64,000 nt of DNA from an uncultured Elusimicrobia bacterium (GTDB lineage Bacteria > Elusimicrobiota > Elusimicrobia > UBA1565 > UBA9628). The translations under genes were made by a program, and so were the position numbers. The stretch is from NCBI GenBank assembly GCA_964623465.1, contig CAZURZ010000001.1, positions 1,660-65,659 on the forward strand. Direction: 5' to 3'. The notes below the pieces were generated by a model. The model made no database searches, was not told the DNA's origin, and saw nothing but the letters and a program-made list of their open reading frames with translations. Positions 14,879-40,020 of the stretch are shown in pieces; position 1 is the first letter of the stretch; each line of letters begins with the position of its first letter.

Positions 14879-18405
<3,527 letters not shown>

Positions 18406-25646: not shown

Positions 25647-25707
25647 CTTAACCGAGGTTAAGCCGCGGGGCTTGACGCGGCCCCGTTCCGGGTCCATACT
25701 GCTCTCC

Positions 25708-26796
25708 GTGAACCCGAACAACCTCCTCCGCGTCGCTCTCGCCGCGCTCATCGCCGTCCCCGCCGGCCCGCTCTGGGCTCAGGACTACGGCGAGAAGGAC
25801 AAGAAGAAGGCGGAGGAGCTCGCCTCCGCCGACAAGGACTTCAAGTCCCTCCCCGAGGACGAGAAGGAGGCCGTGATCATCTTCATCGCGCGGGAGATCC
25901 ACGGACGCCGCCGCAAGGCGATCGGGGCCGCCATCACGAACATGAAGGGCGCCGACGTCGAAACGCTCAAGAAGAAGGCGAACAAGAGCCACATCGTCGT
26001 CGCCGAGCAGGACAAGGAGGCGGTGAACGTCCCTCCCGGGCCGAGCGTGATCGAGGTCAAGAGCATCGATACGCCCTCTTTCGGCCGCCTCTTCAAGGAC
26101 AACGAGTGGACCGTCGACGAGGGCTCGGCCGAGGCCGCCCAGCTCAAGCAGACCGTCGACAACATCGTCGACACCCTCAAGAAGACGAACGGCCGTCTCG
26201 TCGCCATGCACGTCGAGTCGTCCGCGAGCACGCTGCGTAACACCGGCAAGGCGGCGAAGATGACGCACCTCGAGCTGTCCAAGGCCCGCGCCGAGGCGGC
26301 CGCGCGCTTCGCGCTCGATTACCTGAAGAGCAAGGGTTACGTTCTCGACGAAGAAGAGCAGGTCACGCTCGACTTCGAGGGCTCGAACAAGAACGGCACC
26401 TCCGGCCCGTCCAGCCCCTACGCGGTCCCGGACGGCGACGATCCGAAGTACAACCCCAAGGGCTGCTGCGAACCCCCCAAGGAAGCCAAGGACGTCGTCG
26501 AGAAGATCGTAAAGGGGACAGCGACGTCCGAGGAGAAGGCCAAGCTCGCCGCCTTCTACGACGATCACAAGTACGTCCAGCTGACCTTCGACGCGCTGTT
26601 CGAAACCAAGAGTTCCAATCCCGGCGTGAACACGCCTGGCGAGGCGCACGTCGTCCAAGCTTGGGTCAACTACAAGGAAAAACCGAAGTTCCCGCGGATC
26701 CGCATCCGCATCCCGAGAATCCACATCGGCTGGCCGTTCGGAAACAAAGAGAAGCGCCGGGCCCGGCGTCAGACCCGCTGCCCGAAGTGGAAATAG
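25708..26796 (+). CDS. hypothetical Lys/Glu-rich secreted protein
   Basis: GTG start 7 nt after TTGACG-17-CATACT (leaderless candidate); signal peptide; locally lower GC. Confidence 0.45.
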   Translation: MNPNNLLRVALAALIAVPAGPLWAQDYGEKDKKKAEELASADKDFKSLPEDEKEAVIIFIAREIHGRRRKAIGAAITNMKGADVETLKKKANKSHIVVAEQDKEAVNVPPGPSVIEVKSIDTPSFGRLFKDNEWTVDEGSAEAAQLKQTVDNIVDTLKKTNGRLVAMHVESSASTLRNTGKAAKMTHLELSKARAEAAARFALDYLKSKGYVLDEEEQVTLDFEGSNKNGTSGPSSPYAVPDGDDPKYNPKGCCEPPKEAKDVVEKIVKGTATSEEKAKLAAFYDDHKYVQLTFDALFETKSSNPGVNTPGEAHVVQAWVNYKEKPKFPRIRIRIPRIHIGWPFGNKEKRRARRQTRCPKWK

Positions 26797-26809: not shown

Positions 26810-28087
26810 TTGCTGACTTTGCTGGCGGCCCTGCTGTTCTCCGGGCCGCCGGCCGCGCGGGCGGAGGACGCCCCCCCGCCCGCCGCGGCGGAGGATTCCC
26901 GCGACGCCAACCACGACGGCACGGTGAGCGGCAAGGAACGCCGGCGCGCCAGGCGCTCCGAGCGCCGGGCCCGCCGCGGAGAGAAAAACGCCTCGGGCGA
27001 AACCGCCGTCGACGAGGAGCAGGACGCCGCCGACGCCGAAGAGTCGGCGGAACGCGGACGCAGCGCCTCCGGCGCGGCGGCCGGCGCGGCGGCCGCGCTC
27101 AAAAGCTCCATGCCCTCGCTGGATGCCGCCGCGATGCCGCCGGGAGCGGGTGGAACGGGCGGCCCGCCCGCGTCTCCCGGCGCTCCGCAACCGGGCGACC
27201 CCGCCGCCAAGGCCGCCGGGGGTTCCGCGGCCCTCGGAAGCGGCGGCGCGGCAGCCGGGGGCTTCAAGCCCTCGGCCCACAGCGCCGGAGCCAGCGGCGA
27301 CCCCGGCAAACCCAGGGCGCCTTCCGACTTCGTGCTGGCGGCCCGTTCCGGCTACGCGCCCGCTTTCGCGTCCGCGGGCCTGAAGCTCTCCGCAGACGGA
27401 CGCTCGATCGTGCGCCTCGACGGCTCCCCCGCCTCCGCCGACGACTACACGCGTCTGCAGCGCGAGATATCCGCGATGCCCGCCGCCTTGGGCCGCCGGC
27501 CCGACTTCTTCAACGCGATCAGCCCGGAGCGTTACGCCGATCTCAAGGGCGAGTACAAGACGAACAAGGACGATCCGAACTTCAAGGACGTGGGAACCAC
27601 CGAGGGGGACCGCGACTTCGTCCATACCGCGAGTTGCGACAGACTCTCCGGGGACTGCAACAAGAACGTCGAGAAGGGCGGCTACAAGAAGGGCGAGTAC
27701 GTGGCGCCCGAGGACCTGGACGCGATGTGGAACGCCCTGCAGAAGCAGATCGACGGCTCCTCCGCCGCCGAGGACGGGATGAGCCTCTCCGCCAAGGGCG
27801 AGACCCTCGCGCGCGAGACGGCCGTCGAGGCCGCCGAGGCGATCTCCGGGGAAAAAAACCGTCCGGCCGCGGCGCGGGCCGCGGCTGCCGGGACCGCGGA
27901 GGCGTCGCCGGCGGCCGCGGCCGTCGCGCAGGCGGTCGCGGCCGCGCGGAACGTCTTTCGCGGCGCCATGACGATCGCCCGGCCCGGGAGAGGCGCCGAG
28001 GGCGGAGCGGACCGGAGCGCGCTCGCCGTCGCCGCCGCCGTCCTGGGGGCGCTCGCCGCCGGCGTCCTGTTGCTGCGCCGCCGATAG
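26810..28087 (+). CDS. hypothetical Ala/Gly-rich secreted protein with a C-terminal hydrophobic anchor followed by RRR
   Basis: TTG start with signal peptide; low-complexity N-terminal half; C-terminus ...EGGADRSALAVAAAVLGALAAGVLLLRRR. Confidence 0.5.
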   Translation: MLTLLAALLFSGPPAARAEDAPPPAAAEDSRDANHDGTVSGKERRRARRSERRARRGEKNASGETAVDEEQDAADAEESAERGRSASGAAAGAAAALKSSMPSLDAAAMPPGAGGTGGPPASPGAPQPGDPAAKAAGGSAALGSGGAAAGGFKPSAHSAGASGDPGKPRAPSDFVLAARSGYAPAFASAGLKLSADGRSIVRLDGSPASADDYTRLQREISAMPAALGRRPDFFNAISPERYADLKGEYKTNKDDPNFKDVGTTEGDRDFVHTASCDRLSGDCNKNVEKGGYKKGEYVAPEDLDAMWNALQKQIDGSSAAEDGMSLSAKGETLARETAVEAAEAISGEKNRPAAARAAAAGTAEASPAAAAVAQAVAAARNVFRGAMTIARPGRGAEGGADRSALAVAAAVLGALAAGVLLLRRR

Positions 28088-28099
28088 CCCCTATACGCA

Positions 28100-28115
28100 C
28101 ATGACGGCCGTCATG
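28100..28115 (+). promoter_or_regulatory. perfect 16-bp palindrome CATGACGGCCGTCATG (candidate operator)
   Basis: Exact dyad symmetry 36 nt upstream of the first gene of the folE operon, overlapping the expected -35 region. Confidence 0.4.
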
Positions 28116-28151
28116 GCGCGAACGCGCCTCCTTGCTCTACAATGGGATAGG

Positions 28152-29564
28152 ATGCTCGATCTTCTCTTGATAAACGGCCGCGTAATCGCCTCGGACCGGG
28201 TCATCGAGGACGCCGCGGTCGGCGTGCGCGACGGCAAGATCGTCGCGGTCGGTCCGGAGCGCGAACTTGGGACCGCCCGGCGCGTCATCGACCTGGACGG
28301 CAAGGCCTTGTTTCCCGGCATGTTCGACCCCCATTGCCACCTGGGCAGCGGCGACGAGCGCACGTACGAGTACATGGCCTCCAGCTTCGAGAAGGACACG
28401 CGGGACTTCCTCATCGGCGGCGTGACGTCGATGGCCACGACGACGGTGCTCACTCGCGACCCGCTCGTCGAGAACCTGCGCCGCTCCCGCGAAGCCGCGA
28501 AGGGGCGCTCGCGCGTCGACTTCCGCTTGACGAGCGTCATCCTCACCGACGAGCACGTGGATCAGATTCCCGCGGCCGTCGCGGACGGCGTCCTGTCCTT
28601 CAAGTTCTACTGCGGCTACTGCGGCGACCAGGCCGAGCGCATGGGCATGAACCGCGACGGGGTGCCGCCCGACATGTTCTACCGCGCCTGCGAAAACTCC
28701 GTGAAGGCCGATCCCCGCGCGCTGATGATGATCCACGCCGAGGAGCCGCACGTCCGGCGCATGCTGGGCCAGCGGCTCAAAGCGTCGGGACGCGAGGACC
28801 TCGTGGCGTGGGCCGAGCACAGCCCGCAATGGTCGGAGTCCGTTCAGGTGGCGCTGTACGGCGAGATCGCTCACGAGACGAAGGCGAAGCTCTACGTCGT
28901 GCACATCTCCCGCGCGCCGACCGTGGACATGATCGAGTATCTGCGCTCGCGCGGCCACGTCATCATCGGGGAGACGCTCTCGGTCTTCCTCTCGACCACG
29001 GCGCAGGACCGCCACGCCGCCGGCGCCGGGCTGAAAGCGAAGATCCAGCCGCCGATCCGCTTCCAGGAGGATCAGGACCGCCTGTGGCGCGGACTCAAGG
29101 AAGGCTCGCTCACCGCGATCGGCACGGACACGATCCCCTACACCTCCAAGTACAAGAGCAAGGCGCCCTTCTGGGAGGCGCGCCCCGGCCTCAACATCCA
29201 GACCATCGACACTTTGCCGCTTCTGCTCACCGAGGGGTACCGCAAGGGCCGCGCCGACCTGCCCACGCTCGCGCGCGCCCTCGCCGAGAACCCGGCGCGC
29301 TACTTCGGCGCCGGAGACCGCAAGGGCCGGATCGCGCCGGGATTCGACGCCGATTTCGCGGTGATCGATCTCGACAAGCGCGCCGTGCTCGGGCACGCCC
29401 GCATGCGCGGCGGCTCCGACTATTCGATCTGGGAAGGCAAGGAGGTCACGGGCATGCCGGTGATGACGATCCTGCGCGGACGGGTGGTCTGCGAGAACGG
29501 GGAAATCGTGGGCGAGGCGGACGGCGCCTATCTCCCTCCCGAGCGCGCCGGAGTCGCGCGATGA
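28152..29564 (+). CDS. cyclic amidohydrolase (dihydropyrimidinase/hydantoinase-like, amidohydrolase superfamily)
   Basis: 471 aa; N-terminal LLINGRV...DLDGKALFPGMFDPHCHLG metal-binding motif typical of the DHPase/hydantoinase family. Confidence 0.8.
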   Translation: MLDLLLINGRVIASDRVIEDAAVGVRDGKIVAVGPERELGTARRVIDLDGKALFPGMFDPHCHLGSGDERTYEYMASSFEKDTRDFLIGGVTSMATTTVLTRDPLVENLRRSREAAKGRSRVDFRLTSVILTDEHVDQIPAAVADGVLSFKFYCGYCGDQAERMGMNRDGVPPDMFYRACENSVKADPRALMMIHAEEPHVRRMLGQRLKASGREDLVAWAEHSPQWSESVQVALYGEIAHETKAKLYVVHISRAPTVDMIEYLRSRGHVIIGETLSVFLSTTAQDRHAAGAGLKAKIQPPIRFQEDQDRLWRGLKEGSLTAIGTDTIPYTSKYKSKAPFWEARPGLNIQTIDTLPLLLTEGYRKGRADLPTLARALAENPARYFGAGDRKGRIAPGFDADFAVIDLDKRAVLGHARMRGGSDYSIWEGKEVTGMPVMTILRGRVVCENGEIVGEADGAYLPPERAGVAR

Positions 29565-30076
29565 GCGCCCCGCTGCGCTTCGGAAGCCGCAAGCTCGTGC
29601 TGGCCGTCACCGGCCGTCGGGGCGACAGCCCGAAGTGGAACGCGGAACAGGCCGCCGCCGCGAAGGCCGCGGGACGCGTCGCGGCCGGCCTCGGGCTGAC
29701 CGTGCTCACCGGAGGGCTCTCCGGCGTCATGGAGCACGCCGCGGCCGGAGCCAAGGCCGCGGGCGGCGAAACGCTCGGCATCCTGCCCGGCGGCAAGCAC
29801 GACGACGGCAACCCCTACCTCGATCTGGTCCTGCCGTCCGGCCTCGGCATCGCGCGCAACGTCCTGGTGGCCAGCGCCTGCGACTTCATGCTGGCCCTGC
29901 CCGGCGGCACCGGCACGCTCGAGGAACTCTGCTTCGCCGCCGATTTCGGACGCCCGTCGCTGTCGTGGGGAAGCTGGGACCTCGAAGGCGTGAGGAAGGT
30001 CCCTTTCCCGGACGAAGCCGCTCTCGAGAAGGCCCTGCGCGAGCTCGTCGACGCGAAGCTGAACGCCAAGCCCTGA
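29561..30076 (+). CDS. LOG-family / TIGR00725-like Rossmann-fold nucleotide-binding protein
   Basis: 171 aa; VTGRRG...LTGGLSGVMEHAAAGA...PGGTGTLEE motifs of the LOG superfamily (a family that includes the pterin-binding MoCo carrier protein); ATGA overlap with the upstream gene. Confidence 0.65.
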   Translation: MSAPLRFGSRKLVLAVTGRRGDSPKWNAEQAAAAKAAGRVAAGLGLTVLTGGLSGVMEHAAAGAKAAGGETLGILPGGKHDDGNPYLDLVLPSGLGIARNVLVASACDFMLALPGGTGTLEELCFAADFGRPSLSWGSWDLEGVRKVPFPDEAALEKALRELVDAKLNAKP

Positions 30077-30087
30077 GGAGAACGCCC

Positions 30088-30714
30088 ATGGAGATGCCCG
30101 TCGGCAAGCCGCTGTCGCCCAAGTCCGTCTCGATCGGAGAGATCGAGGACGGCATCCGTCGCGTCCTGCTCGGCCTGGGCCAAGGCGAGAAGGCCGAGGT
30201 CATGGCCAACACGCCGCGCCGCGTCGCGGAGATGTACCAGGACATCATCAACGCCCCGTGGTGCGACATCGAGATCCCGTGGAAGTGCTTCCCGAACAAG
30301 GACGCCGACGGCAAGAAGCTGATGGACGACCTGGTCATCGTCACCGACTGCCATTACGTCAGCCTGTGCGAGCACCACCTCGCCCCGGCTCTGGGCATCG
30401 CGCACTTCGCGTATTACCCCGACGAGAAGATCACGGGCTACTCGAAGATCAAGAAGGGCCTGAACTACCTCGCGCGCCAGCCCCAGCTCAACGAGCGCCT
30501 GCTCAAGCAGACGCTCGACGTCGTCGAGAGCGTGCTCGAGCCCAAGGGCTGCGCCCTCGTTCTCCAGTCGACCCACACCTGCCTGACCTGCAAGTCGAAC
30601 TCGCCGGCGCAGGAGGTCGTGACGGTCCAAGGCTTCCGCGGAATCCTGAAGGACGATCCCTACCGGCGCGAGTTCCTCGCGACCGCGTACGGCAAGCGGC
30701 CGGTGTTCGGATGA
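30088..30714 (+). CDS. folE: GTP cyclohydrolase I (type 1)
   Basis: 208 aa; NTPRRVAEMYQDI, CEHHLAP and QSTHTC motifs typical of FolE; GAGGAG ribosome-binding site. Confidence 0.85.
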   Translation: MEMPVGKPLSPKSVSIGEIEDGIRRVLLGLGQGEKAEVMANTPRRVAEMYQDIINAPWCDIEIPWKCFPNKDADGKKLMDDLVIVTDCHYVSLCEHHLAPALGIAHFAYYPDEKITGYSKIKKGLNYLARQPQLNERLLKQTLDVVESVLEPKGCALVLQSTHTCLTCKSNSPAQEVVTVQGFRGILKDDPYRREFLATAYGKRPVFG

Positions 30715-30974
30715 GCGAGAGCGAGGCGCTGGCCGCTCGCCTGCGCCAGTCCATCCAAGGCTGCACCTTGCACCTGCATGGGCCGGTGCAGGCGTGGGCT
30801 TCCATCGAGGAGGCCCGCGCCCGCGGCGTGCGCGCCGAGGACGTCGCGCGCCACGCCGTCGAGGCCTGCACGAAGCGCATCGCCGAACTGAAGGCCGAGG
30901 GGGTCTCCGGCGACGACCCGCGCGTGCGCAAGGAAGAGCTCACGCGCGCCTTCATCGAGAGGATCCTGCGGTGA
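30711..30974 (+). CDS. small hypothetical protein (87 aa)
   Basis: Translationally coupled (ATGA) between folE and the bicupin gene. Confidence 0.45.
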   Translation: MSESEALAARLRQSIQGCTLHLHGPVQAWASIEEARARGVRAEDVARHAVEACTKRIAELKAEGVSGDDPRVRKEELTRAFIERILR

Positions 30975-32011
30975 GCGACCAGGCCCGGCGCGACGCCTTC
31001 CACGCCAAGCTCCGCGCGCTCGAGCTGCGGGAGGGTTACGACTACGACGACGGCAAGGGCTTCGTCACCCGTCCGTACTGGCCGCTCCAGCCCGGCAACA
31101 AGATGAAGCCGCACCTCTGGCGCTGGCGCGACGTGCGCGAGGTCGTCGTCGAATGCGGCGAGATGGTCGGGCTCGGACACGGGACGAAGAAATACGACCG
31201 CCGCGTGCTCGCGCTGACCAATCCCGGCGCCGACGGCGACTTCACGATGACCGGCCCCCTCTTCGGCGACATCCAGCTCATCCGCCCCGGAGAGCGCGCC
31301 CCCTGCCACCGCCACACGCCGTGCGCCACGCGCTTCATCCTCGAGGGCTCCGGCGGCTGGACGAGCGTCGCCGGCGAGCGCGTGCGCGTGAAGCCGGGCG
31401 ACGTCCTCTACACCGGCCAGTTCCCGTGGCACGACCACGGCAACGACGGGACCGACGACTTCATCTTCCTCGACGTGCTCGACATCCCCCTGCTGTTCTT
31501 CACGGGCACCTCCGCCTGGGAATTCGACTACGAGCGCGTCACGGGCAGCAAGGACGTCGTGAACCAGCCGGCGAAGGACGCCGACCCGCGCCGCGCGCCC
31601 ACCGCCGACCTCGCCCATCTGTCCTGGGCCGAGGCGCGGCGGACTCTGGAGAAGACCGCGGAGCTCGAGCTCGCGGGTCCCGGAGGCGGCTCCTCCGGTC
31701 CGACCGTCTCGATCCGCGCCCGCCGGATCGCTCCCGGCGAGAAGACCCTTTCCGTCCGCCGCACGGGCTCCTTCGCCTACGTCTGCGCCGAGGGTTCCGG
31801 CACGGTCCGAGCCGGCGACGAGACGTTCGAGGTCGGTCCGCGCGACATCTTCGTGATCCCGAGCTGGGCCTGGCACTCCTTCGAAAGCGAGAAAGGGATG
31901 TGCCTCCAGTCGATCAGCGACCTCCCTCTCATCCGGAAGATGCGCCTGTTCCGCGAGCAGCGCCGGGCCGCCGACGGGACGATCTCCGACACGGGGTGGA
32001 GCGGCGAATGA
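30971..32011 (+). CDS. bicupin dioxygenase of the gentisate 1,2-dioxygenase family
   Basis: 346 aa; PGERAPCHRHTPCATRFILEG and FPWHDHGNDG motifs match the GDO cupin signatures; second cupin domain at the C-terminus. Confidence 0.75.
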   Translation: MSDQARRDAFHAKLRALELREGYDYDDGKGFVTRPYWPLQPGNKMKPHLWRWRDVREVVVECGEMVGLGHGTKKYDRRVLALTNPGADGDFTMTGPLFGDIQLIRPGERAPCHRHTPCATRFILEGSGGWTSVAGERVRVKPGDVLYTGQFPWHDHGNDGTDDFIFLDVLDIPLLFFTGTSAWEFDYERVTGSKDVVNQPAKDADPRRAPTADLAHLSWAEARRTLEKTAELELAGPGGGSSGPTVSIRARRIAPGEKTLSVRRTGSFAYVCAEGSGTVRAGDETFEVGPRDIFVIPSWAWHSFESEKGMCLQSISDLPLIRKMRLFREQRRAADGTISDTGWSGE

Positions 32012-32625
32012 GCGCGATCAAGTTCAAGCCGTCGGAGTGCGCCCTGCTCGTCGTCGACATGCAGAACGGATTCGTGCATCCCGACAGCGCGATGGGCCGC
32101 TCCCGCTCGGGCACGAAAGCCCAGCGCAAGATCGTGCCCGCGATCGTCTCGCTGGCCGCCGCCTGCCGCGAGGCCGGAGTCCCCGTGCTCTGGACGAAGC
32201 AGGAGCACTTCCCCGGAGACGTCACGCGCGCGCGCAAGAGGATCCGGCCGCACTCGGCTCGCCAAGGCTTCCTGCCCTGCCTGCGCGGGACCTGGGAGAC
32301 GGAGTTCTATCCCGAGATCGGAAGCGCGGTCTCCCCCGAGGATCACGTCGTTCCCAAGCACCGCGCCTCCGCGTTCTACGACACGAACCTCGAGACGAAG
32401 CTGCGCATGCTCGGCACGCGCTGCCTCGCGATCGCCGGCTGCAACACCGAGTTCTGCGTCGAGAGCACGGTGCGCGACGCCTACGCGCGCGATTTCGAGC
32501 TCGTGATCCTGCGCGACTGCGTCGCGGGAATCGACCCGAGGTTCCACGCGCACTCGCTCGCGGTCTTCCAGGCGTACTTCGGCGAGGTCGTCGTCTCCGC
32601 GGCGTTCCGGAGGATGTTGAAGTGA
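32008..32625 (+). CDS. isochorismatase-family cysteine hydrolase (amidase-type)
   Basis: 205 aa; LLVVDMQNGF...AGCNTEFCVESTVRDA motif with the catalytic Cys; ATGA coupling. Confidence 0.75.
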   Translation: MSAIKFKPSECALLVVDMQNGFVHPDSAMGRSRSGTKAQRKIVPAIVSLAAACREAGVPVLWTKQEHFPGDVTRARKRIRPHSARQGFLPCLRGTWETEFYPEIGSAVSPEDHVVPKHRASAFYDTNLETKLRMLGTRCLAIAGCNTEFCVESTVRDAYARDFELVILRDCVAGIDPRFHAHSLAVFQAYFGEVVVSAAFRRMLK

Positions 32626-34256
32626 GCACGCGGCCTCGCAACGCCGGCGAGGCCTTGATCCTGCGCTTGAAGTCTCTCGGCGTGGACCGTTTCTATGCCA
32701 ACCCCGGGACCGAGTTCGTCTCCATCATCAGGGGTTTTCGAGACCTGCCGCCCGCGGAGCTGCCGGAACCCGTCCTCGTCGCGCACGAGCTCCAGGCCGT
32801 GAGCATGGCGCACGGCGATTATCTCGCCACGGGCCGCCCCCAGGCCGTCATGACCCATGCGACGGTCGGCGCGGCCAACGCCGTCATCGGCCTGATCGCC
32901 GCCTCGCGCATGAACGTGCCGCTGATCTTCGTCTCCGGGATGACTCCGGCGAACGAGAGCGGCGCGGGCCGCCGCGACCGGCTCCATCACTGGGCGCAGG
33001 ATTCGAAGGATCCCGGCGCCATGTACCGCGAGTACGTGAAGCGGGAGTTCGACGTCCGCGAGCCGGGAGCCCTTCCCGGCGTCCTCGATCAGGCGTACGC
33101 GATCGCCATGACCGAGCCGCGCGGGCCGGTCGCCGTGCGCGTCTCCCGCGACGTCCTCGTCGCCGAGTCGCCGGCCTTGCCCGCTCTCGCGGCCGCCCCG
33201 GCCCCCGCGCCGGCGCCCTCCTTCGACGCCCTCTTCGCCCTGCTCGAAACGGCCCGCCGGCCCCTCGTCGTGACCAACCGCCTCGGCGTCGACCCCTCCG
33301 CGGTGCCGCTCCTGATCGCGGCGGCGCAGCGCCATGGGCTCGGCGTCTCGACGCCCGATGATTTCTACGCGAGCTTCCCGTCGGAGCACCGCCTCCATCT
33401 CGGGTATAAGCAGGGAGCGGCGCTCGCGGAGGCAGACGTCGTCCTCGTCCTGGACGTCGACGTCCCGTGGTATCCGCTCGACAACGGGCCCGCCGCCGCG
33501 GCGAAGGTCGCGCACATCGGCCCGGACCCCCGCGCCGAGAGCATCCCGCTGCGCGGCCATCGAGGCAATCTCTTCCTGAAAGCGAATCCGGCGGAGTTCC
33601 TGCGCGCGCTCGCCGCCCGGGAACCGGCCTCGGCGCTCCTGCCGGAACGCGAGGCCTGGTGCGCGACGATGCGCGCGCTGCGCCCGGCGCCCCCCGCGGC
33701 CGCGGACGGGGCTCCGCTCACGGCCGCGATCGTCTCCGTGATCCTCGCCGCGGAAGCGGGAGACGCCGTGCTCGTCAACGAGCTCGGCCTCGTCCCGGAG
33801 TTCCTGCGCCCCCGGCCCGGCGCCTATTTCCGCTCGACGAGCTCCTCGTCGCTCGGATGGGGCGTCGGCTGCGGGCTCGGGCTCGTGATCGCCCGGCCGG
33901 GCAGGACGGCGATCGTCGCCGTCGGCGACGGGGTCTTCTTCCTCTCCCCCGCGCACGGGGCGCTCCTGCTCGCCGCCCGCCGGAAAATCCCCTATGTCCT
34001 CCTGATCCTGAACAACGGGGGCATGCGCTCCGTGGCCGCGGCGACGCGTGAGGCTTATCCCGAATCCGCGGGGGACCTGCCGCTCACGGTCCAGGCCCTG
34101 GAGGGACTCGACGTGTCGAAGACGGCGGACGTCGTGGGCGGCCGGGGCGCCCGCGCATCGACGGCCGGCGAGCTCCGCCTCGCCCTGGCCGACGCCCTGG
34201 CCTTCACCCGCAAGACCGGCCGGCCCGCGGTGGTGGAGGCCCGGATCGCCGCCTAA
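32622..34256 (+). CDS. thiamine diphosphate-dependent enzyme (acetolactate synthase / benzoylformate decarboxylase superfamily)
   Basis: 544 aa; N-terminal Pyr domain and C-terminal GDGVFF...NNGGM ThDP-binding motif; GTGA coupling. Confidence 0.75.
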   Translation: MSTRPRNAGEALILRLKSLGVDRFYANPGTEFVSIIRGFRDLPPAELPEPVLVAHELQAVSMAHGDYLATGRPQAVMTHATVGAANAVIGLIAASRMNVPLIFVSGMTPANESGAGRRDRLHHWAQDSKDPGAMYREYVKREFDVREPGALPGVLDQAYAIAMTEPRGPVAVRVSRDVLVAESPALPALAAAPAPAPAPSFDALFALLETARRPLVVTNRLGVDPSAVPLLIAAAQRHGLGVSTPDDFYASFPSEHRLHLGYKQGAALAEADVVLVLDVDVPWYPLDNGPAAAAKVAHIGPDPRAESIPLRGHRGNLFLKANPAEFLRALAAREPASALLPEREAWCATMRALRPAPPAAADGAPLTAAIVSVILAAEAGDAVLVNELGLVPEFLRPRPGAYFRSTSSSSLGWGVGCGLGLVIARPGRTAIVAVGDGVFFLSPAHGALLLAARRKIPYVLLILNNGGMRSVAAATREAYPESAGDLPLTVQALEGLDVSKTADVVGGRGARASTAGELRLALADALAFTRKTGRPAVVEARIAA

Positions 34257-34273: not shown

Positions 34274-34318
34274 GCACGCCCCCGTAGCTCAGTTGGTTAG
34301 AGCAGCCTGCTCATAACG
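34274..34318 (+). repeat. tRNA-Met 5'-half fragment (attachment-site direct repeat, left copy)
   Basis: 45 nt identical to 39943-39987 (acceptor stem through anticodon loop of tRNA-Met) and no T-arm follows. Confidence 0.8.
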
Positions 34319-34529
34319 CAATCCCGCGGTCGATGCGTGTGGTTTTTCTCCCTCGGGTAAAGCCGTTCTTCGACGAGGATGCGTGTAAGCCGAGTTCCCG
34401 ACCTTACCCGGTCTTTCCCGCCTTTTCGCTCGGTTTCCAGGGTGTCTTGGCCACAGGGATGCGTGTATGCTCGTCGTCCTCCAAAACCGCGCGCCCTTGC
34501 AGAGACCGCCTGCTTCTGCTACATAAGGT

Positions 34530-34904
34530 TTGATGAAGGCCGTTCGCAGGATATTGTCGGCGCTCTTATTCGGCGGGGTGTTCGCCCCGCTGGGACCCCA
34601 CGCCCTGGTCCACGCGTGGAGCGATGCCCACTTACACCATCATGCCGACGGGGTCGCGCACTCTCATCAGCACGACGCCGATCATCATGAGCATGAGGTG
34701 TCCTCCGGCCTTTCTTGCGATCTGCGGCTCCTGCCGTCTCGCGCGTCCATTCAAGATACCGCGACGACGTTCACGTTCCTCCCCTCCGCGGCTCAGATCC
34801 AGGAAGGCCCTCGGCGCTCCACTCTTCTGTCGTCGTCCTATCGCCCCGGTGCTCCTCCCGGACACCGTGCGTCTCCCCACCTCGGCCGCGCTCCTCCCGC
34901 CTGA
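34530..34904 (+). CDS. putative His-rich periplasmic metal-binding protein (boundaries uncertain)
   Basis: Signal peptide followed by HALVHAWSDAHLHHHADGVAHSHQHDADHHEHE; the C-terminal half is low complexity and may be out of frame or not coding. Confidence 0.35.
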   Translation: MMKAVRRILSALLFGGVFAPLGPHALVHAWSDAHLHHHADGVAHSHQHDADHHEHEVSSGLSCDLRLLPSRASIQDTATTFTFLPSAAQIQEGPRRSTLLSSSYRPGAPPGHRASPHLGRAPPA

Positions 34905-34968
34905 CGGGCTTTCTTCCGTCGCGTCGTAGTCCGTTCCCGATGAACTGACCCCGTCTGTCTGGAGTGCC

Positions 34969-37900
34969 ATGCTTAACGCCATCATTCGCTTTTCTTTGAA
35001 CCGCCGCCTGCTCGTGCTCGTCGCCGCGGCAGCCCTGTCCGCTTATGGTCTGTGGGTCGCCCGGCATCTTCCCGTCGACGTCTTTCCGGACTTGAACCGA
35101 CCGACCGTCGCCATCCTCACCGAGGCTCATGGGCTCGCCCCCGAGGAGGTCGAGACGCTCGTCACCCATCCCATCGAGTCAGCCCTCAACGGCACCCCCG
35201 GCGTCGTGCGCGTGCGTTCCTCGAGCGGCATAGGCATCTCCATCGTCCACGTCGAGTTCGACTGGGGGACGGAGGTGTTCCGGAACCGCCAGCTCGTGTC
35301 GGAGCGGCTCCAGATGCTCAAGGATACCCTGCCCACCGGCATGGTTCCCATCATGGGGCCGGTCAGTTCCATCATGGGTGAAATCCAGTTCGTGGGATTG
35401 ACTAGCCCGGATGGCGCCGTCTCGCCGATGGAGCTGCGTACGCTCGCCGATTGGATCGTGCGGCCGCGCCTCATGACGCTGTCGGGAATCAGCCAAGTCA
35501 TAGTGATGGGCGGCCAGGTCAAGCAGTACCAGATCATGGTCTCAGCCGACCGGCTTCAGCGCAAGGGCATCTCCCTGGAGGAGCTCAAGCACGCCCTTTC
35601 GGAGATCAGCGAGAACACCACCGGGGGCTTCGTCGACCTCGATGATAAGGAGTTCCTCGTGCGCCCTCTGGCTCGCGTCGAATCCGCCGAGGAAATCGAG
35701 AACTCTCCCATTGGCATGCACCTGGGACGGCCGGTCCTCGTAAAGGACGTGGCTGAGGTGCGGGTCGGTCCCAAGACCAAGCGCGGGGAAGCCCGCGTCA
35801 ACGGCAAGCACTCGGTCGTGATGACCATACAGAAGCAGCCTGGGGCGAACACGATCGAACTGACGCGCAAGATCGACGCCATGATCGCCGACCTTCAGAA
35901 GAGCCTGCCGCCGGGCACGCGCCTCGAAGGAGACCTATTCAAGCAGTCGCGCTTTATCGAGGCGTCCATCTCCAACGTAGAGGACGCGTTGAGGGATGGA
36001 GCCATCATGGTCGCGATCATCCTCTTCCTGTTCCTCGTCAATGTGCGCACGACAGCGATCACTTTGGTCGCGATCCCCTTGTCCCTGCTCGTCACCGCCA
36101 TCGTCTTCAAGCTGCTGGGCATGGGCATCAACACGATGACCCTCGGCGGCCTCGCCGTCGCCATAGGCGAACTCGTCGATGACGCCATCGTCGACGTGGA
36201 AAACGTCTTCCGTCGTCTTCGCGAGAACCGCGCGGCAGGGAACCCCAAGAGCTCCTTGCGGGTGGTCTACGACGCCTCCTCCGAGGTGCGCAACTCCATC
36301 GTCTTCTCGACCATCATCGTGGTGCTCGTCTTCCTGCCGCTGTTCGCCCTCGGCGGCATCGAGGGGCGCCTGTTCGCGCCGCTCGGGGTGGCGTACATCG
36401 TCTCGTTGCTGGCCTCACTAGCCGTCTCACTGACCGTGACGCCCGCGCTCTGCTCGTACCTGCTTCCCAACGCGAAGGCGGTCGCCCACCACGACGACGG
36501 CGCGTTCGTCCGCCGCTTGAAAGCCCTGGATCGCGACATGCTCGCCAGGACCATCCATCATCCGAAGGCGTTGCTCGGTGCCTGCGCGGTCCTCCTCGCG
36601 GGCTCCTTGGCGCTTTTGCCTTTCATGGGCCACAACTTCCTCCCGGCGTTCAATGAAGGGACCGCCACCATCGGAGTCGCCGCGGCTCCCGGCATCTCAC
36701 TGGCGGCGTCGGATGAACTCGGCACGCGCATCGAGGAAGCCATGCTCTCGGTCCCGGAAGTGAAATCCACCATACGGCGCACGGGCCGAGCCGAGCTCGA
36801 CGAGCACGCCGAGGGCGTGCACTGGAGCGAGATCGACGTCGACTTCAAGGAAGGCGGACGACCGCGGCAACAGGTGCTTCAGGAGATCCGGGAGAAGGTC
36901 GAGAAGACGGGCGACGTCGCCGTCAACATCGGCCAACCCATCAGCCACCGCCTCGATCATCTGCTGTCAGGCGTCCGCGCGCAGATCGCCATCAAGATCT
37001 CGGGAGTCGAGCTGAGCGAGTTGCGCCGGCTCGGAGCGCAGGTCGAGGCCGTGCTGAAGGACATCCCGGGCGTCGTCGACCTTTCCCTGGAGCCGCTGGT
37101 CCTCATCCCACAGCTCAAGATCGCGGTCGACCGCGAAGCGGCCGCCGGACTCGGGGTGCGCCCCGGCATGCTCGCCCAAGACCTCGAGACCGCCCTGAGC
37201 GGCGAGTCGGTTGGTGAAGTGCTGGAACGGCAGCGGCGCTTCGACATCTTCATGCGGCTCGATGATAAGTCCCGGCAAGATCCGGCGTCCATTCAGGCGG
37301 TCCTCGTGAAGACCATGCCGACCGGACGGCTCGTTACGGTCGGGGATTTGGCCGAGGTCTACAAGGGAACCGGCCCCAACATGATCAACCGCGAGGGGAT
37401 GCAGCGCCGCATCGTCGTCTCGGCCAACTCGCAGGGCCGCGACCTCGGCAGCCTCATCCAGGAAATCCAAGACCGGGTCGCCGATAAGGTCCGGCTGCCG
37501 GAAGGTTACTTCATCACCTACGGCGGCCAGTTCGAAAGCCAGCAGAAGGCCGCTCGCCTGCTGATCCTGCTGGGAGCGGCGTCCTTGATCGGCATCTTCT
37601 TGGTGCTGTACGCCCATTTCCGCTCGACGGTGCTCGCCCTTCAAATCATGCTCAACGTACCGCTGGCCCTTATCGGCAGCCTTTGGGCGATCTGGCTGAC
37701 GGAGAGGACGCTGTCGGTGGCTACGATGATCGCCTTCATCACGCTCTGCGGAATCGCCAGCCGCAACGGCATCATGATGATCAGCCATTACATCCATCTC
37801 ATGAAGGAGGAGGGCGAGGCCTTCAGCGAGAAGATGGTGATCCGCGGCTCGCTGGAGAGGCTCGTGCCGGTCTTGATGACGGCCCTGACCGCCGCTCTGG

Positions 37901-38115
37901 CTCTGGTTCCCCTGCTTCTATCCCGCGGGCAGCCCGGCAAGGAGATCCTGTACCCCGTCGCCGTCGTCATCGTCGGGGGGCTGCTCTCATCGACCTTGCT
38001 CGACATCATCGTCACCCCCGCCGTCTTCCTGCGCTTCGGAAGACGACCCGCCGAAAAGCTTATCGCTCTGGAGAAGGAAGAAGCCGAGAAAGCCGCTAAA
38101 GGAGAGGTGCTATGA
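34969..38115 (+). CDS. heavy-metal efflux RND transporter, CusA/CzcA (HME) family
   Basis: 1048 aa; 12-TM RND architecture with conserved N-terminal LNAIIRFSL...GLW region typical of CzcA/CusA. Confidence 0.9.
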   Translation: MLNAIIRFSLNRRLLVLVAAAALSAYGLWVARHLPVDVFPDLNRPTVAILTEAHGLAPEEVETLVTHPIESALNGTPGVVRVRSSSGIGISIVHVEFDWGTEVFRNRQLVSERLQMLKDTLPTGMVPIMGPVSSIMGEIQFVGLTSPDGAVSPMELRTLADWIVRPRLMTLSGISQVIVMGGQVKQYQIMVSADRLQRKGISLEELKHALSEISENTTGGFVDLDDKEFLVRPLARVESAEEIENSPIGMHLGRPVLVKDVAEVRVGPKTKRGEARVNGKHSVVMTIQKQPGANTIELTRKIDAMIADLQKSLPPGTRLEGDLFKQSRFIEASISNVEDALRDGAIMVAIILFLFLVNVRTTAITLVAIPLSLLVTAIVFKLLGMGINTMTLGGLAVAIGELVDDAIVDVENVFRRLRENRAAGNPKSSLRVVYDASSEVRNSIVFSTIIVVLVFLPLFALGGIEGRLFAPLGVAYIVSLLASLAVSLTVTPALCSYLLPNAKAVAHHDDGAFVRRLKALDRDMLARTIHHPKALLGACAVLLAGSLALLPFMGHNFLPAFNEGTATIGVAAAPGISLAASDELGTRIEEAMLSVPEVKSTIRRTGRAELDEHAEGVHWSEIDVDFKEGGRPRQQVLQEIREKVEKTGDVAVNIGQPISHRLDHLLSGVRAQIAIKISGVELSELRRLGAQVEAVLKDIPGVVDLSLEPLVLIPQLKIAVDREAAAGLGVRPGMLAQDLETALSGESVGEVLERQRRFDIFMRLDDKSRQDPASIQAVLVKTMPTGRLVTVGDLAEVYKGTGPNMINREGMQRRIVVSANSQGRDLGSLIQEIQDRVADKVRLPEGYFITYGGQFESQQKAARLLILLGAASLIGIFLVLYAHFRSTVLALQIMLNVPLALIGSLWAIWLTERTLSVATMIAFITLCGIASRNGIMMISHYIHLMKEEGEAFSEKMVIRGSLERLVPVLMTALTAALALVPLLLSRGQPGKEILYPVAVVIVGGLLSSTLLDIIVTPAVFLRFGRRPAEKLIALEKEEAEKAAKGEVL

Positions 38116-38558
38116 AATACCTGAGTGTCTTGCTTGCCGCATCGCTGTCGCTTCCCGCGTTCGCGCATGATGAAGGCCACGGCCCGAAAGTCGTAGACGC
38201 GGGGAAGATGGGCGGGGTCCTGACGGCCGTCGTCCTCGCCAAGGACGCCAAGTTCGGTCCCAAGGCCGCCCTGGTCTATAAGGCCGAACTGACGCGCACC
38301 GATGACGGCACCGTTCGCATCTACTTTTACGACAAGGACATGAAGCCCCTAGACATCGCGAGCCTCCCAAAGACGGCCAAAGCGGCGCTCCAAGCCAAGA
38401 AGAATAAGAAGTGGACGAGCACGCCCTTCATCCTCGCGAAGACGGCTGATGGCTATGAAGGCAAGGCTCCGAAGCCCGCGAGCAAGCCGTTCAACATCGA
38501 CGTGACGCTGACGGAGGGCAAGCGTGAGCTTCTTGCGGCATTCGATGGCTTGGACTAG
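38112..38558 (+). CDS. small periplasmic protein (148 aa) occupying the position of an efflux adaptor
   Basis: ATGA-coupled to czcA; signal peptide then AHDEGHGP; far too small for a canonical membrane fusion protein. Confidence 0.55.
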   Translation: MKYLSVLLAASLSLPAFAHDEGHGPKVVDAGKMGGVLTAVVLAKDAKFGPKAALVYKAELTRTDDGTVRIYFYDKDMKPLDIASLPKTAKAALQAKKNKKWTSTPFILAKTADGYEGKAPKPASKPFNIDVTLTEGKRELLAAFDGLD

Positions 38559-39801
38559 GCTTCTCGCGTCATTCGCCGTCTTGGCCTTCGCCTCATGGGC
38601 GAGAGCCGAGACGACTCGCGTCGAGTTCAACGACATCCCTCGCCTGGTGCAGCAGCGCAATCGGGCGGTCTCCGGAGCGGCGCTTCAGGCGACGGCGGCA
38701 GAAGCGCGAGAGGGCGCTTTTTCCCGCTCCTTCTTGCCGACGGCGAGCCTCGACGCGGGTCTTGAGCGCTTCCAGACTGGGCGCTACCCCCACGATACCC
38801 AACCGTACGGCTCGGCCGAGGCTCGGATAAACCTGTTCCGCGGCTGGCGCGATGCCTGGAATGAGCGTCATTTGGAGAGCCTTTCTTCCGCCGCCGCGGC
38901 TAAGTCGGCGGACGAGTTGGCCTTTCAGTTGGCCGAGGCGCGGCGAGCATTCCTCAGACTCGTGCACGCACGGGAGATGGGGGCAGTCGTGCGCGAGGCG
39001 CAGACCGAGAATCAGCGTCTTCTTGAACGAGCGGATCGACGCATCAAGCGCGGCTTGGCCACGGAGACGGATCGCCTCGAGTTCGAGATCGGGGCGTCCC
39101 AGCTCAAGGAGGACGGCGAGAGCTACGCTCATTCCGAACTACAGCTGAAGTTGCGCCTGGCCGCGTTGTTAGGACTACCAGAAGATACCGAGCTCGAGAC
39201 GCCTCTAAAGCTCGATCACGTTCACGACGAAGCTCTCCTGAGCACGCCGTTCGAGCCCGGGAGCCATCGTGAAGCCAGGCTGCTAGCCGCGCAGGGCGCG
39301 GCGGCTCATGCCGAGTCAAAAGCGGCGTCCTTATGGTGGGCGCCGTCGTTGGACGCTTACGCGGGGAAATACCTGTACACGCTGCGCGAACGCGACTACC
39401 TCGCGTCGAGCCTTCGCGACGACTTCGCCGTCGGCGGCAAGCTGAGCCTGCGCCTTTTCGACGGCGGTGCAGAACGCGCCGAGGCCAAAGCCAAGCGCCT
39501 TGAAGCCGGCGGTATGGAGCAGAAACTGGCCCAGCGGCGGACCGACCTTCGGGCGCGCGTGCGCGTCGTTGAAGAGGACCTCAAGCACGACCATGAGCTG
39601 GTCCACTTTGCCGAGGATCGCATTGTGATGGCCAGCCGCTATCTCAACTCGACTTTGGACGAGTACGACCGCGGGGTCAAGAACTCGCTGGACGTCTTCT
39701 CGGCTGCGCAGCGCCTGCTCGGCTATCGCCGCGCGCTCGCCGAGCGCCGGCGCGACTACCTGCTCACAAAGGTCAACCTTTTGCAGGAACATGGCTTATG
39801 A
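38545..39801 (+). CDS. outer membrane efflux protein (TolC/CzcC-like OMF)
   Basis: About 418 aa; signal peptide; two-repeat coiled-coil/beta-barrel OMF pattern; alternative GTG start at 38524. Confidence 0.7.
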   Translation: MAWTRLLASFAVLAFASWARAETTRVEFNDIPRLVQQRNRAVSGAALQATAAEAREGAFSRSFLPTASLDAGLERFQTGRYPHDTQPYGSAEARINLFRGWRDAWNERHLESLSSAAAAKSADELAFQLAEARRAFLRLVHAREMGAVVREAQTENQRLLERADRRIKRGLATETDRLEFEIGASQLKEDGESYAHSELQLKLRLAALLGLPEDTELETPLKLDHVHDEALLSTPFEPGSHREARLLAAQGAAAHAESKAASLWWAPSLDAYAGKYLYTLRERDYLASSLRDDFAVGGKLSLRLFDGGAERAEAKAKRLEAGGMEQKLAQRRTDLRARVRVVEEDLKHDHELVHFAEDRIVMASRYLNSTLDEYDRGVKNSLDVFSAAQRLLGYRRALAERRRDYLLTKVNLLQEHGL

Positions 39802-39946
39802 CGTGGCTCAGAGCACTCCGCTCTTGCGGGTCGGGTGGGGTCAGACCTATTCGCTTCAAGCCATGGCCACACGCATGCGTGTTTTGGCCACAACGCGGCC
39901 CCAAACGACCTGTGTGGCCCTCAAAAAAGACTTAAAATATAAGCAC

Positions 39947-40020
39947 GCCCCCGTAGCTCAGTTGGTTAGAGCAGCCTGCTCATAACGGGTTGGTCCCTGG
40001 TTCGAGTCCAGGCGGGGGCA
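39947..40020 (+). tRNA. tRNA-Met (anticodon CAT), elongator-type (tRNA-Ile2 with lysidine not excluded)
   Basis: Cloverleaf: acceptor GCCCCCG/CGGGGGC, D-arm GCTC..GAGC, anticodon loop CTCATAA, T-arm CCTGG-TTCGAGT-CCAGG, discriminator A; G1-C72 and no triple GC in the anticodon stem, so not an initiator. Confidence 0.85.

Follow-up and report, generated by a model that had tools for sequence, protein, structure and literature searches.

Gene content and layout of the locus

The stretch analysed here, 64 kb of contig CAZURZ010000001.1 from an uncultured Elusimicrobia bacterium (hereafter the window), carries a run of seven genes built around a homologue of GTP cyclohydrolase I (FolE). Since the window is ~69% GC, raw lists of its open reading frames (ORFs) were noisy, and coding segments were picked by phase profiling of the GC content at third codon positions (GC3). 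This gave seven successive coding segments on the + strand, from about 28100 to 34256, which we refer to as g1 to g7. Sequence comparison identifies three of them, g3, g4 and g2, as homologues of PtnA, PtnB and PtnC, which form the core of the 8-azaguanine cluster of Streptomyces pathocidini. The features of the locus are as follows.

28100..28115, no strand: 16-bp perfect palindrome CATGACGGCCGTCATG, a candidate operator, 36 nt upstream of the likely g1 start
28152..29564, + strand: g1, cyclic amidohydrolase of the hydantoinase/allantoinase/dihydropyrimidinase superfamily, 470 aa (PF01979/PF07969)
29561..30076, + strand: g2, SLOG/LOG-like nucleotide N-glycosidase, PtnC homologue, 171 aa (PF18306 LDcluster4, 1.5e-28)
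30088..30714, + strand: g3, PtnA-type GTP cyclohydrolase I homologue, 208 aa (PF01227, 2e-38)
30711..30974, + strand: g4, PtnB-family small protein, 87 aa (predicted four-helix bundle, conserved Cys18/His21)
30971..32011, + strand: g5, gentisate-1,2-dioxygenase (GDO)-type bicupin, 346 aa (two Cupin_2 domains)
32008..32625, + strand: g6, isochorismatase-family cysteine amidohydrolase, 205 aa (PF00857, 7e-44)
32622..34256, + strand: g7, thiamine diphosphate (ThDP)-dependent enzyme, 544 aa (TPP_enzyme_N/M/C; PF02776, PF02775)
34274..34318, + strand: truncated 5' copy of tRNA-Met, marking the 3' boundary of the operon

ATGA/GTGA overlaps of 4 nt were observed at five of the six operon junctions (29561; 30711, where g4 overlaps the g3 stop; 30971; 32008; 32622), and the sixth, before g3 at 30088, is an 11-nt spacer containing GGAG. 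Such overlaps were found at none of the 12 other co-directional junctions in the GC3-based gene list of the window. A first-pass annotation of the same DNA had described seven co-directional genes coupled mostly through 4-nt overlaps, which agrees with this layout. All the family names it gave were likewise recovered by Pfam and NCBIfam profile searches, the 87-aa g4 matching no family in either database. Each of the seven proteins scores under the cut-off of every characterised equivalog in NCBIfam, 'FolE' included, and active-site residues are intact across the set.

The start of g1 had been placed at 28101 (487 aa). We prefer 28152 (470 aa), as all orthologues begin at the equivalent Met in the alignment, and this start leaves a gap of 64 nt between the upstream gene and g1, within which the palindrome lies. 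The palindrome CATGACGGCCGTCATG is present as a single exact copy in the window, against a chance expectation of 0.3 even allowing 2 mismatches. In an Elusimicrobia-labelled metagenome-assembled genome (MAG; locus L010) the identical element, at 7903-7918, precedes the g1 orthologue by 35 nt, behind a different upstream gene, and conservation of the element upstream of the operon is confined to the window and L010. No cognate regulator for it was identified in the window. It is most likely that the transcription unit begins near 28100 and ends at 34256.

A longer operon, taking in the two ORFs directly upstream (25672-26796 and 26810-28087), was considered and rejected: both ORFs are absent from L010 and from all other loci, and the conserved palindrome marks a separate start. 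The two ORFs are strongly coding (GC3 about 0.9), match no Pfam family, have signal-peptide-like N-termini and are preceded by M14 and M3 peptidase genes; one product is rich in Lys and Glu, the other in Ala, Gly and Pro, and the latter has a hydrophobic anchor at its C-terminus.

The PtnA/PtnB/PtnC core and its accessory enzymes

The 8-azaguanine (pathocidin) cluster of S. pathocidini, ptnABCDEF or 8-azg, has been described previously (MIBiG BGC0002508; PMC7109123, PMC7674941), and our re-annotation of the ptn locus (L024) recovered the published gene set, with PtnC falling in PF18306. PtnA is an essential GTP cyclohydrolase I homologue that was never obtained in soluble form; it has been proposed to excise C8 of GTP hydrolytically, with no subsequent rearrangement and with the ribosyl bond kept. 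8-Azaguanosine has been isolated, and the 8-azaguanosine and 8-azaGMP products of the system keep this bond. The LOG-like PtnC cleaves 8-azaGMP in vitro, and neither GMP nor the diaminopyrimidine nucleotide is a substrate. The cluster further encodes a NUDIX protein (PtnD), an efflux pump (PtnE) and a nitric-oxide synthase (NOS; PtnF); the triazole closes non-enzymatically from NO-derived species, and nitrite rescues the NOS mutant, which still makes traces of product (PMC7109123).

The cyclohydrolase g3 shares 54% identity with S. pathocidini PtnA (3e-66), as against about 35% with canonical FolE. It scored 128.5, 122.7, 118.8 and 108.3 bits with the four NCBIfam FolE models, none of which reached its cut-off (162, 174, 181.6 and 202, respectively). 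The Zn/catalytic residues C94, E95, H96, H97, H163 and C165 (CEHH ... HxC) are retained as in canonical FolE, as are the guanine-binding E136 and S119/K120/R45, and all PtnA residues listed in PMC7109123 are kept except for one R-to-K change (PtnA R165 = K169). On comparing 55 PtnA-clade sequences with 55 canonical FolEs, the canonical set being drawn from phage, we observed about 20 positions that are conserved in both groups but with different residues. In the PtnA clade N replaces Q of the QER motif, beside the guanine-binding Glu; K replaces the invariant R after the Ser-Lys phosphate site (SKxxR segment); A replaces F after HHLxP; and S replaces A before HxC. The corresponding substitutions in g3 are N135, K123, A101 and S161, together with a clade-specific C-terminal extension. 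N135 and K123 are found in 100% of the PtnA-clade sequences, and Q and R in 100% of the 55 canonical phage FolEs. These substitutions, read from the alignment, would fit an altered reaction outcome. Homologues of g3 form a tight family (57-100% identity) in many metagenomes, and in viral contigs the identity to g3 is bimodal, 16 contigs lying at 49-71% and the rest at <=37%.

Families of the FolB, FolK, QueD, QueE and PTPS-like type were found neither among the operon proteins nor among the nine flanking ORFs scanned. In the loci examined, PtnA-clade genes were never linked to folB, folK, queD or queE; they were always linked to SLOG and PtnB genes. The earlier suggestion that this cyclohydrolase is not a housekeeping enzyme of folate, tetrahydrobiopterin (BH4) or queuosine synthesis is borne out by its scores under the cut-offs, its place in the PtnA clade and the lack of folate or queuosine partners in the operon and these flanking ORFs.

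PtnB was described as a small iron-binding protein with 'no close homologs' (PMC7109123); its role is left open in the literature, where it is listed as a putative N-N bond-forming enzyme. By hhalign, the g4 family matches actinobacterial PtnB over its full length (98% probability, E 1.5e-13, 86 columns), and a PtnB query detects g4 orthologues directly (2e-8 in the Myxococcales locus L014), which assigns g4 to the PtnB family on profile evidence. The AlphaFold2 (AF2) model of g4 has a pLDDT (predicted local distance difference test) of 83.6 and depicts a generic helical bundle; a Foldseek search of the PDB with this model gave no significant match (best E 0.5). The family is rare, a full hidden Markov model search returning 47 clusters among 1.84 billion representatives, and it includes PtnB-DUF3050 (HamA) and PtnB-NUDIX fusion proteins (members noted include P0139, P0141, P0142, P0143, P0152, P0155, P0156 and P0159). 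PtnB accompanies PtnA across clusters of the NOS, HamA and bicupin types and is absent where PtnA is absent. Since PtnB tracks PtnA, it may be taken to serve the cyclohydrolase step or to hand over its product, and not to be specific to triazole closure; PtnB would be a partner of the cyclohydrolase or of a downstream oxidase rather than a dedicated triazole-forming enzyme.

The third core protein, g2, passes the PF18306 cut-off (99.7 bits against 26.3), which places it in the same Pfam family as PtnC. The two proteins are 36-41% identical (41% over 93 aa, 3e-9). R99 and E122 of g2 correspond to the catalytic R95/E118 of PtnC, and both these residues and the PGGTGTLEE motif at positions 114-122 are invariant across all cluster classes. 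Scores fall under the cut-offs for TIGR00725 (79 against 106.9), TIGR00730 (44 against 96) and cytokinin LOG (25 against 300). The first-pass annotation had proposed that the LOG-like protein binds or processes the cyclohydrolase product, in the manner of the molybdenum cofactor (MoCo) carrier protein or of a nucleotide N-glycosidase. Of this, the homology to PtnC and the catalytic Arg/Glu pair favour processing downstream of the cyclohydrolase, and g2 is better read as a PtnC-like nucleoside-5'-monophosphate N-glycosidase than as a pterin/MoCo-type binder, the part of the proposal that we do not retain. The SLOG gene adjoins the PtnA-clade gene in 26 of 27 genome and encoding-contig loci and in all 16 viral contigs; in the exception, L015, the contig ends inside the cyclohydrolase gene, and linkage was counted where the locus extends far enough downstream.

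The four remaining proteins are enzymes of recognisable families. The cyclic amidohydrolase g1 is roughly equidistant from allantoinase (226 bits, cut-off 358), D-hydantoinase (219, cut-off 393) and ErtD (197, cut-off 600). Its best PDB match is the L-hydantoinase 1gkr (2e-52), and the binuclear-metal ligands HxH (78/80), K168, H212, H268 and D343 (487-aa numbering) are present. The bicupin g5 does not meet the equivalog TIGR02272 (208 bits, cut-off 442) and is closest in the PDB to 2d40 (2e-47), in alignment with which it keeps the Fe ligands H113, H115 and H154 as well as R121 and H156; we take the latter two positions to be those that contact the substrate carboxylate in GDO and salicylate dioxygenases. 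The hydrolase g6 passes PF00857 (150 bits, cut-off 27), has the Asp-Lys-Cys triad D17/K117/C150, and is nearest to RutB (87 bits, cut-off 378; PDB 8bkd, 6.5e-22) and BiuH (68 bits), in both cases far under the cut-off. The ThDP enzyme g7 scores just below the cut-off of PRK08327 (397 bits, cut-off 456), has benzoylformate decarboxylase 4q9d as its best PDB match (1e-23), and contains the GDG-X26-NN motif at 435-465 and the catalytic Glu56.

Conservation, modularity and possible mobility of the gene set

A scan of one genome per species with the cyclohydrolase gave 18 loci, including those of S. pathocidini and S. morookaense, which produce 8-azaguanine. All seven genes occur together in L010, L011, L013 (=L006), L014 and L016, and part of the set is present on the truncated contig L012, in three gene orders. 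L010 has the gene order of the window at 72-96% identity; in L011 (Bacteriovorax), L016 (Bacteriovoracaceae) and L013/L006 (labelled 'bacterium') the order is PtnA-PtnB-amidohydrolase-SLOG-bicupin-isochorismatase-ThDP; and in L014 (Myxococcales) the genes are split into two divergent units. The hosts are Gram-negative-type MAGs with a GC content of 0.37-0.70, the PtnA-like protein still being 71-96% identical, and the flanks of the loci are unrelated to one another. The seven-gene association is far beyond chance. The first-pass view of the genes as one unit is upheld by this neighbourhood check: the unit is conserved, in rearranged order, across five or more further MAG lineages.

Apart from the seven genes, only a gene for a Crp/Fnr-type regulator recurs in the neighbourhood, leading or flanking the cluster, and FNR-like boxes (TTGAY-N4-RTCAA with at most one mismatch) were observed upstream of the regulator-cluster unit in L011, L014, L015 and L016. 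The coordinates of these regulators and boxes are 9187-9200 and 9263-9955 in L011, 6794-6807 and 6845-7549 in L016, 5083-5773 in L015 and 5179-5192 in L014. An N-terminal CxxC and two more Cys, which might be Fe-S cluster ligands, are present in the regulators of L011 and L016 and missing from that of L015. An aldehyde dehydrogenase gene lies near the cluster in L014 and L016. The L013/L006 cluster is preceded by NUDIX and TadA/RibD-like deaminase genes (L006 8897-9963), both missing from the window, and is the only seven-gene locus with a separate NUDIX.

The PtnA/PtnB/SLOG triad also recurs apart from the other four genes. It occurs with NOS in Streptomyces, and with quite different biosynthetic-looking genes in Acidimicrobiia, Microthrixaceae, Actinoplanes and Dactylosporangium clusters. 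These loci, resembling biosynthetic gene clusters (BGCs), are L001-L004, L017 and L025 (Acidimicrobiia/Microthrixaceae), L020 (Actinoplanes), L021 and L018. One type has genes for DAO, 2-hydroxyacid dehydrogenase, FA_desaturase/PhzF, Amidohydro_2, ATP-grasp and APH proteins, an AsnRS/AspRS-like paralogue and an ABC exporter, and DUF3050 is optional in it. The second type combines radical SAM-SPASM and amine oxidase genes with C-PCP genes of nonribosomal peptide synthetase (NRPS) type. Streptomyces hoynatensis (L019) carries ptnA-E, an upstream HemN-like radical SAM gene and an isochorismatase homologue at 14989-15543, with no NOS within 10 kb.

On phage-like and IMG/VR contigs (L007, L008/L009, L034-L049, L114) the PtnA-clade, PtnB and SLOG genes stand with a HamA-type DUF3050 oxygenase; in L008, L034-L036 and L049 PtnB and DUF3050 form a single protein, of which PtnB is the N-terminal domain. 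HamA belongs to the haem-oxygenase-like oxygenases; it is a mono-iron enzyme that binds 2-oxoglutarate and has been implicated in the chemistry of N-N bonds (PMC12522199). The phage-like contigs carry DnaG, RecA, DHFR, lysozyme and many small ORFs; a small membrane protein resembling CBU_0592 is often part of the cassette, and a NUDIX occasionally. These phages might produce a modified base, 8-azapurine-like or of another kind; among the high-GC IMG/VR contigs, some may be bacterial DNA wrongly classified.

The second recurring set, which we call module B, comprises g5, g1, g6 and g2. Relatives of g5 at 41-43% identity again adjoin a SLOG gene, here without PtnA/PtnB. L028 has orthologues of g1 (52%), g6 (47%), g5 (41%) and g2 (50%), next to a divergent PF02649 (FolE2-family) protein, a formamidase-like protein, a molybdoenzyme and an aminotransferase. 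L030 encodes a NUDIX-bicupin fusion (P0247), a SLOG protein, an aminotransferase and a g1 orthologue (56%). A gene of the major facilitator superfamily (MFS) accompanies bicupin and SLOG genes in L029, L194 and L195; L194 adds an aminotransferase and a g1-like amidohydrolase, and L195 has an aminotransferase, after which the contig is truncated. Bicupins of 395 aa at 39-41% identity were set aside as lying outside the system, in ordinary AraC/TctC aromatic-acid operons (L031-L033); the context of g5 is one of nucleotide enzymes, not of aromatic-acid catabolism as in those loci. A metagenome scan with the SLOG alignment yielded 80 loci, 79 of them generic LDcluster4 proteins without partner genes, and no further example of the L028 type; SLOG similarity by itself is not diagnostic. 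Since the triad and the bicupin-SLOG sets each recur separately, the window operon can be described as the meeting point of two recurrent modules, with the SLOG enzyme common to both. The fusions of NUDIX with the bicupin and of PtnB with NUDIX would place both PtnB and the bicupin on nucleotide substrates.

Downstream of the operon, 17 nt after its stop, positions 34274-34318 repeat 45 nt from the 5' part of tRNA-Met(CAT) without a mismatch, as far as the anticodon loop, and the intact tRNA-Met lies 5.6 kb further on (39947-40020). The segment between them (34319-39946) encodes an AcrB-type resistance-nodulation-division (RND) pump (34969-38115) and an outer-membrane factor (38524-39801), at a GC content of 0.62-0.645 against about 0.70, and it looks like an insertion at a tRNA gene, flanked by a direct repeat. 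Just past the tRNA fragment the 9-mer GATGCGTGT is present in three copies within 135 nt (34332-34340, 34378-34386 and 34458-34466), which are its only occurrences in the window (0.34 expected by chance); they may serve the inserted segment as arm-type recombinase sites or as regulator sites. L013 also has a tRNA-Met (8261-8337) next to its cluster. In this 37%-GC MAG (L013/L006) the cluster is 1.7 kb downstream of the tRNA gene, with an ISL3 transposase fragment (L006 8412-8543) between. The adjacency to tRNA-Met, in L013 with a transposase fragment, suggests island-like mobility.

Proposed pathway and comparison with known systems

With moderate confidence, we propose that the operon encodes a specialised GTP-derived pathway that would remodel the base at the nucleotide level, related to 8-azaguanine biosynthesis but distinct from it. 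The chemistry and the order of every step are our proposal, drawn from the homologies, retained catalytic residues, co-occurrence, modularity and fusions described above. In module A (g3 and g4), the Zn-dependent cyclohydrolase would open the imidazole ring of GTP, C8 leaving as formate, and without the Amadori rearrangement to a pterin the expected product would be 2,5-diamino-6-ribosylamino-4(3H)-pyrimidinone triphosphate; g4, as a small iron-binding partner, may help this step or the next one. Module B would then carry out oxidative and hydrolytic remodelling of the base while it is still on the ribose phosphate, and the SLOG N-glycosidase g2 would release the finished heterocycle and ribose 5-phosphate. 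GDO-type ring cleavage would give a 2-oxo acid, the probable substrate of the ThDP enzyme g7; the PtnA-less variants have an aminotransferase gene instead.

The operon product probably differs from 8-azaguanine, because NOS, NUDIX and efflux genes are missing, four conserved enzymes are added and the hosts are not actinomycetes. A tblastn search with PtnF found no NOS in the window or in L010-L016 and recovered it in the Streptomyces loci L022, L023, L024, L026 and L027; searches with PtnD, PtnE, the DUF3050 domain and other partners detected no NUDIX, PtnE-type efflux pump or DUF3050 in the window. Most of the seven-gene loci are likewise without NOS, DUF3050, NUDIX and efflux genes. What we tentatively suggest as the product, with something short of even confidence, is a new GTP-derived purine/pyrimidine mimic: PtnA/PtnB would open the ring, the bicupin would act on the nucleotide base, the amidohydrolases and the ThDP enzyme would reshape it and the LOG-like enzyme would free it, PtnB being a partner of the cyclohydrolase or the oxidase.

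Several observations weigh against this proposal. PtnA itself was insoluble and its product only proposed (PMC7109123). Enzymes of the GDO type normally need an o-hydroxy-carboxylate aromatic; g5 keeps the residues for binding that carboxylate, and a route to such a substrate from ring-opened GTP is not obvious. The flanks of the seven-gene loci lack transporter and resistance genes, an unusual feature if the cluster makes an antimetabolite, and SLOG similarity at 35-50% is common in unrelated contexts. In addition, the available flanks of L029, L030 and L194 contain no cyclohydrolase, and therefore module B may not always start from GTP. We give little weight to the idea that a GTP cyclohydrolase always precedes module B: only L028 agrees with it, and the PF02649 protein there is a weak cyclohydrolase candidate (25.7 bits against the FolE2 model).

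The same genes could be read as a catabolic or salvage route for guanine nucleotides, in which C8 would be removed, the ring broken down to ammonia, urea and small acids, ribose 5-phosphate recovered by the SLOG enzyme and the resulting 2-oxo acid decarboxylated by the ThDP enzyme. A cyclic amidohydrolase, a RutB/BiuH-like hydrolase, a ring-cleaving dioxygenase and a 2-oxo-acid decarboxylase are typical of N-heterocycle degradation, the host labels include predatory lineages rich in prey nucleotides (Bacteriovorax, Bdellovibrionales, Myxococcales), no exporter or resistance gene is present, the MFS transporter of the module B variants could be an importer, and the aldehyde dehydrogenase near the L014 and L016 clusters would suit such a route. 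We nevertheless consider it rather unlikely: catabolism that starts from GTP through a PtnA/PtnB pair is known nowhere, the sole characterised pair is biosynthetic and its other contexts are biosynthetic-looking or phage-like, a purine mineralisation cassette would be useless to phages, the distribution is sporadic and island-like, unlike that of core metabolism, and the NUDIX-bicupin fusion suggests channelled nucleotide processing. It is also conceivable, at a lower probability, that the operon provides an NOS-independent route to 8-azaguanine or another 8-azapurine, PtnA/B/C acting as in Streptomyces and N8 coming from ambient nitrite/NO or from a donor made by the four accessory enzymes; alternatively, these would tailor or detoxify the triazolopyrimidine. 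The full triad is present, and the non-enzymatic triazole closure, the nitrite rescue and the residual product of the NOS mutant (PMC7109123) all leave room for it; other cassettes pair PtnA/B/C with the HamA-type DUF3050, a different oxidative nitrogen-chemistry enzyme, and the Crp/Fnr regulators and FNR-like boxes beside four loci would suit O2- or NO-responsive control. Yet neither NOS nor DUF3050 nor a known nitrite-forming enzyme was found in the window or any seven-gene locus, production of NO or nitrite is not known from any of the four accessory families, the identity of g2 to PtnC is only 36-41%, and the accessory module occurs with SLOG but without PtnA/B, which argues that it acts on a nucleotide in its own right.

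A pterin pathway, close to one of the options in the first-pass annotation, would have g3 as a true GTP cyclohydrolase I making dihydroneopterin triphosphate, its neighbours modifying or degrading the pterin, and the SLOG protein binding pterin like the MoCo carrier. Membership of PF01227, the retention of all Zn and catalytic residues in g3 and the pairing of module B with a FolE2-family protein in L028 are in keeping with this, as would be the NUDIX enzymes of the relatives, which we presume could equally be dihydroneopterin-triphosphate pyrophosphatases. We regard a pterin-derived product as very improbable: g3 groups with PtnA, the characterised member of its clade, for which a halt after C8 excision has been proposed and whose products retain the ribosyl bond, the clade substitutions in g3 replace canonical invariant residues within active-site motifs, g2 keeps the catalytic Arg/Glu of N-glycosidases, and the folate- and queuosine-type partner families are missing from the operon and the nine flanking ORFs. 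That g3 is an ordinary housekeeping folE among functionally unrelated neighbours has a negligible probability in our view. Conservation of the seven-gene set through three rearrangements and a GC range of 0.37-0.70 effectively refutes it; the five 4-nt overlaps, the scores of g3 under every FolE equivalog cut-off and the SLOG linkage in every PtnA-clade locus that extends far enough downstream point the same way. A defence-system reading was also discarded, PADLOC giving only a marginal PsyrA-SLOG similarity.

The first-pass statement that the gene combination matches no nameable pathway holds for the full set of seven, which is undescribed in the literature searched, and fails for g3, g4 and g2, which match the 8-azaguanine pathway. 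Three genes of the seven belong to a system already known. That literature, in which PtnA/PtnB are mentioned only by two papers of 2020 and a 2024 review, does not describe the seven-gene combination, the PtnB fusions or the wide spread of the cassette in phage and outside the actinomycetes. The 8-azaguanine pathway is the only characterised system using PtnA, PtnB and PtnC; their occurrence in at least four other contexts (the seven-gene operon, phage-like HamA cassettes, PtnB-HamA/PtnB-NUDIX fusions and actinobacterial BGC-like clusters) makes the cassette a reusable module well outside Streptomyces. It opens dozens of divergent orthologues, from 37% to 73% GC, to biochemistry and provides a comparative argument on the function of PtnB. 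The operon itself could be the source of a new natural product, a nucleobase analogue, and of a dioxygenase working on a nucleotide base or, if it is catabolic, would represent a new route of guanine-nucleotide degradation.

Compared with known systems, the 8-azaguanine cluster shares with the window the same three-protein core (PtnA/g3, PtnB/g4, PtnC/g2) and perhaps, by analogy, the logic of modifying GTP as a nucleotide and then releasing the base. It differs in having the PtnF NOS, the PtnD NUDIX/acetyltransferase, the PtnE MFS efflux pump and an upstream HemN-like radical SAM gene, all missing from the window, which adds to the core a cyclic amidohydrolase, a GDO-type bicupin, an isochorismatase-type hydrolase and a ThDP enzyme, in hosts that are not actinomycetes. 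The closest relatives of the window proteins are found in the HamA-type cassettes of phage-like and actinobacterial contigs (g3 up to 71%, g4 48-60%, g2 48-54%), but these have a single DUF3050 partner, sometimes fused to PtnB, with or without a NUDIX, and are without the bicupin, amidohydrolase, isochorismatase and ThDP set. Canonical FolE of the folate, BH4 and 7-deazaguanine routes has in common with g3 the PF01227 fold family, the Zn ligands, the catalytic histidines, the guanine-binding Glu and the phosphate-binding Ser/Lys, and is set apart by the low identity (about 35%), the scores under its cut-offs, the clade-invariant substitutions and the C-terminal extension. LOG/PpnN phosphoribohydrolases resemble g2 in the SLOG Rossmann fold, the PGGxGTxxE motif and the catalytic Arg/Glu, whereas g2 belongs to the LDcluster4 subfamily (PF18306) and stays under the TIGR00730, TIGR00725 and cytokinin-LOG cut-offs. 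Gentisate, salicylate and 5-nitrosalicylate 1,2-dioxygenases have the bicupin architecture, the 3-His Fe site and the matching Arg/His of g5, but g5 is tied genomically to a nucleotide N-glycosidase and has one relative fused to NUDIX. In the bacimethrin, blasticidin S and mildiomycin pathways the base is modified at the nucleotide level and then released by an N-glycosidase, and GTP cyclohydrolase II initiates the riboflavin, toxoflavin and vicine routes, with a diaminopyrimidine nucleotide as the branch point. The window operon, whose proteins have no known sequence relationship to those of these pathways, shares with all of them the strategy of opening or modifying the base on the nucleotide and then freeing it, but it employs different enzyme families.

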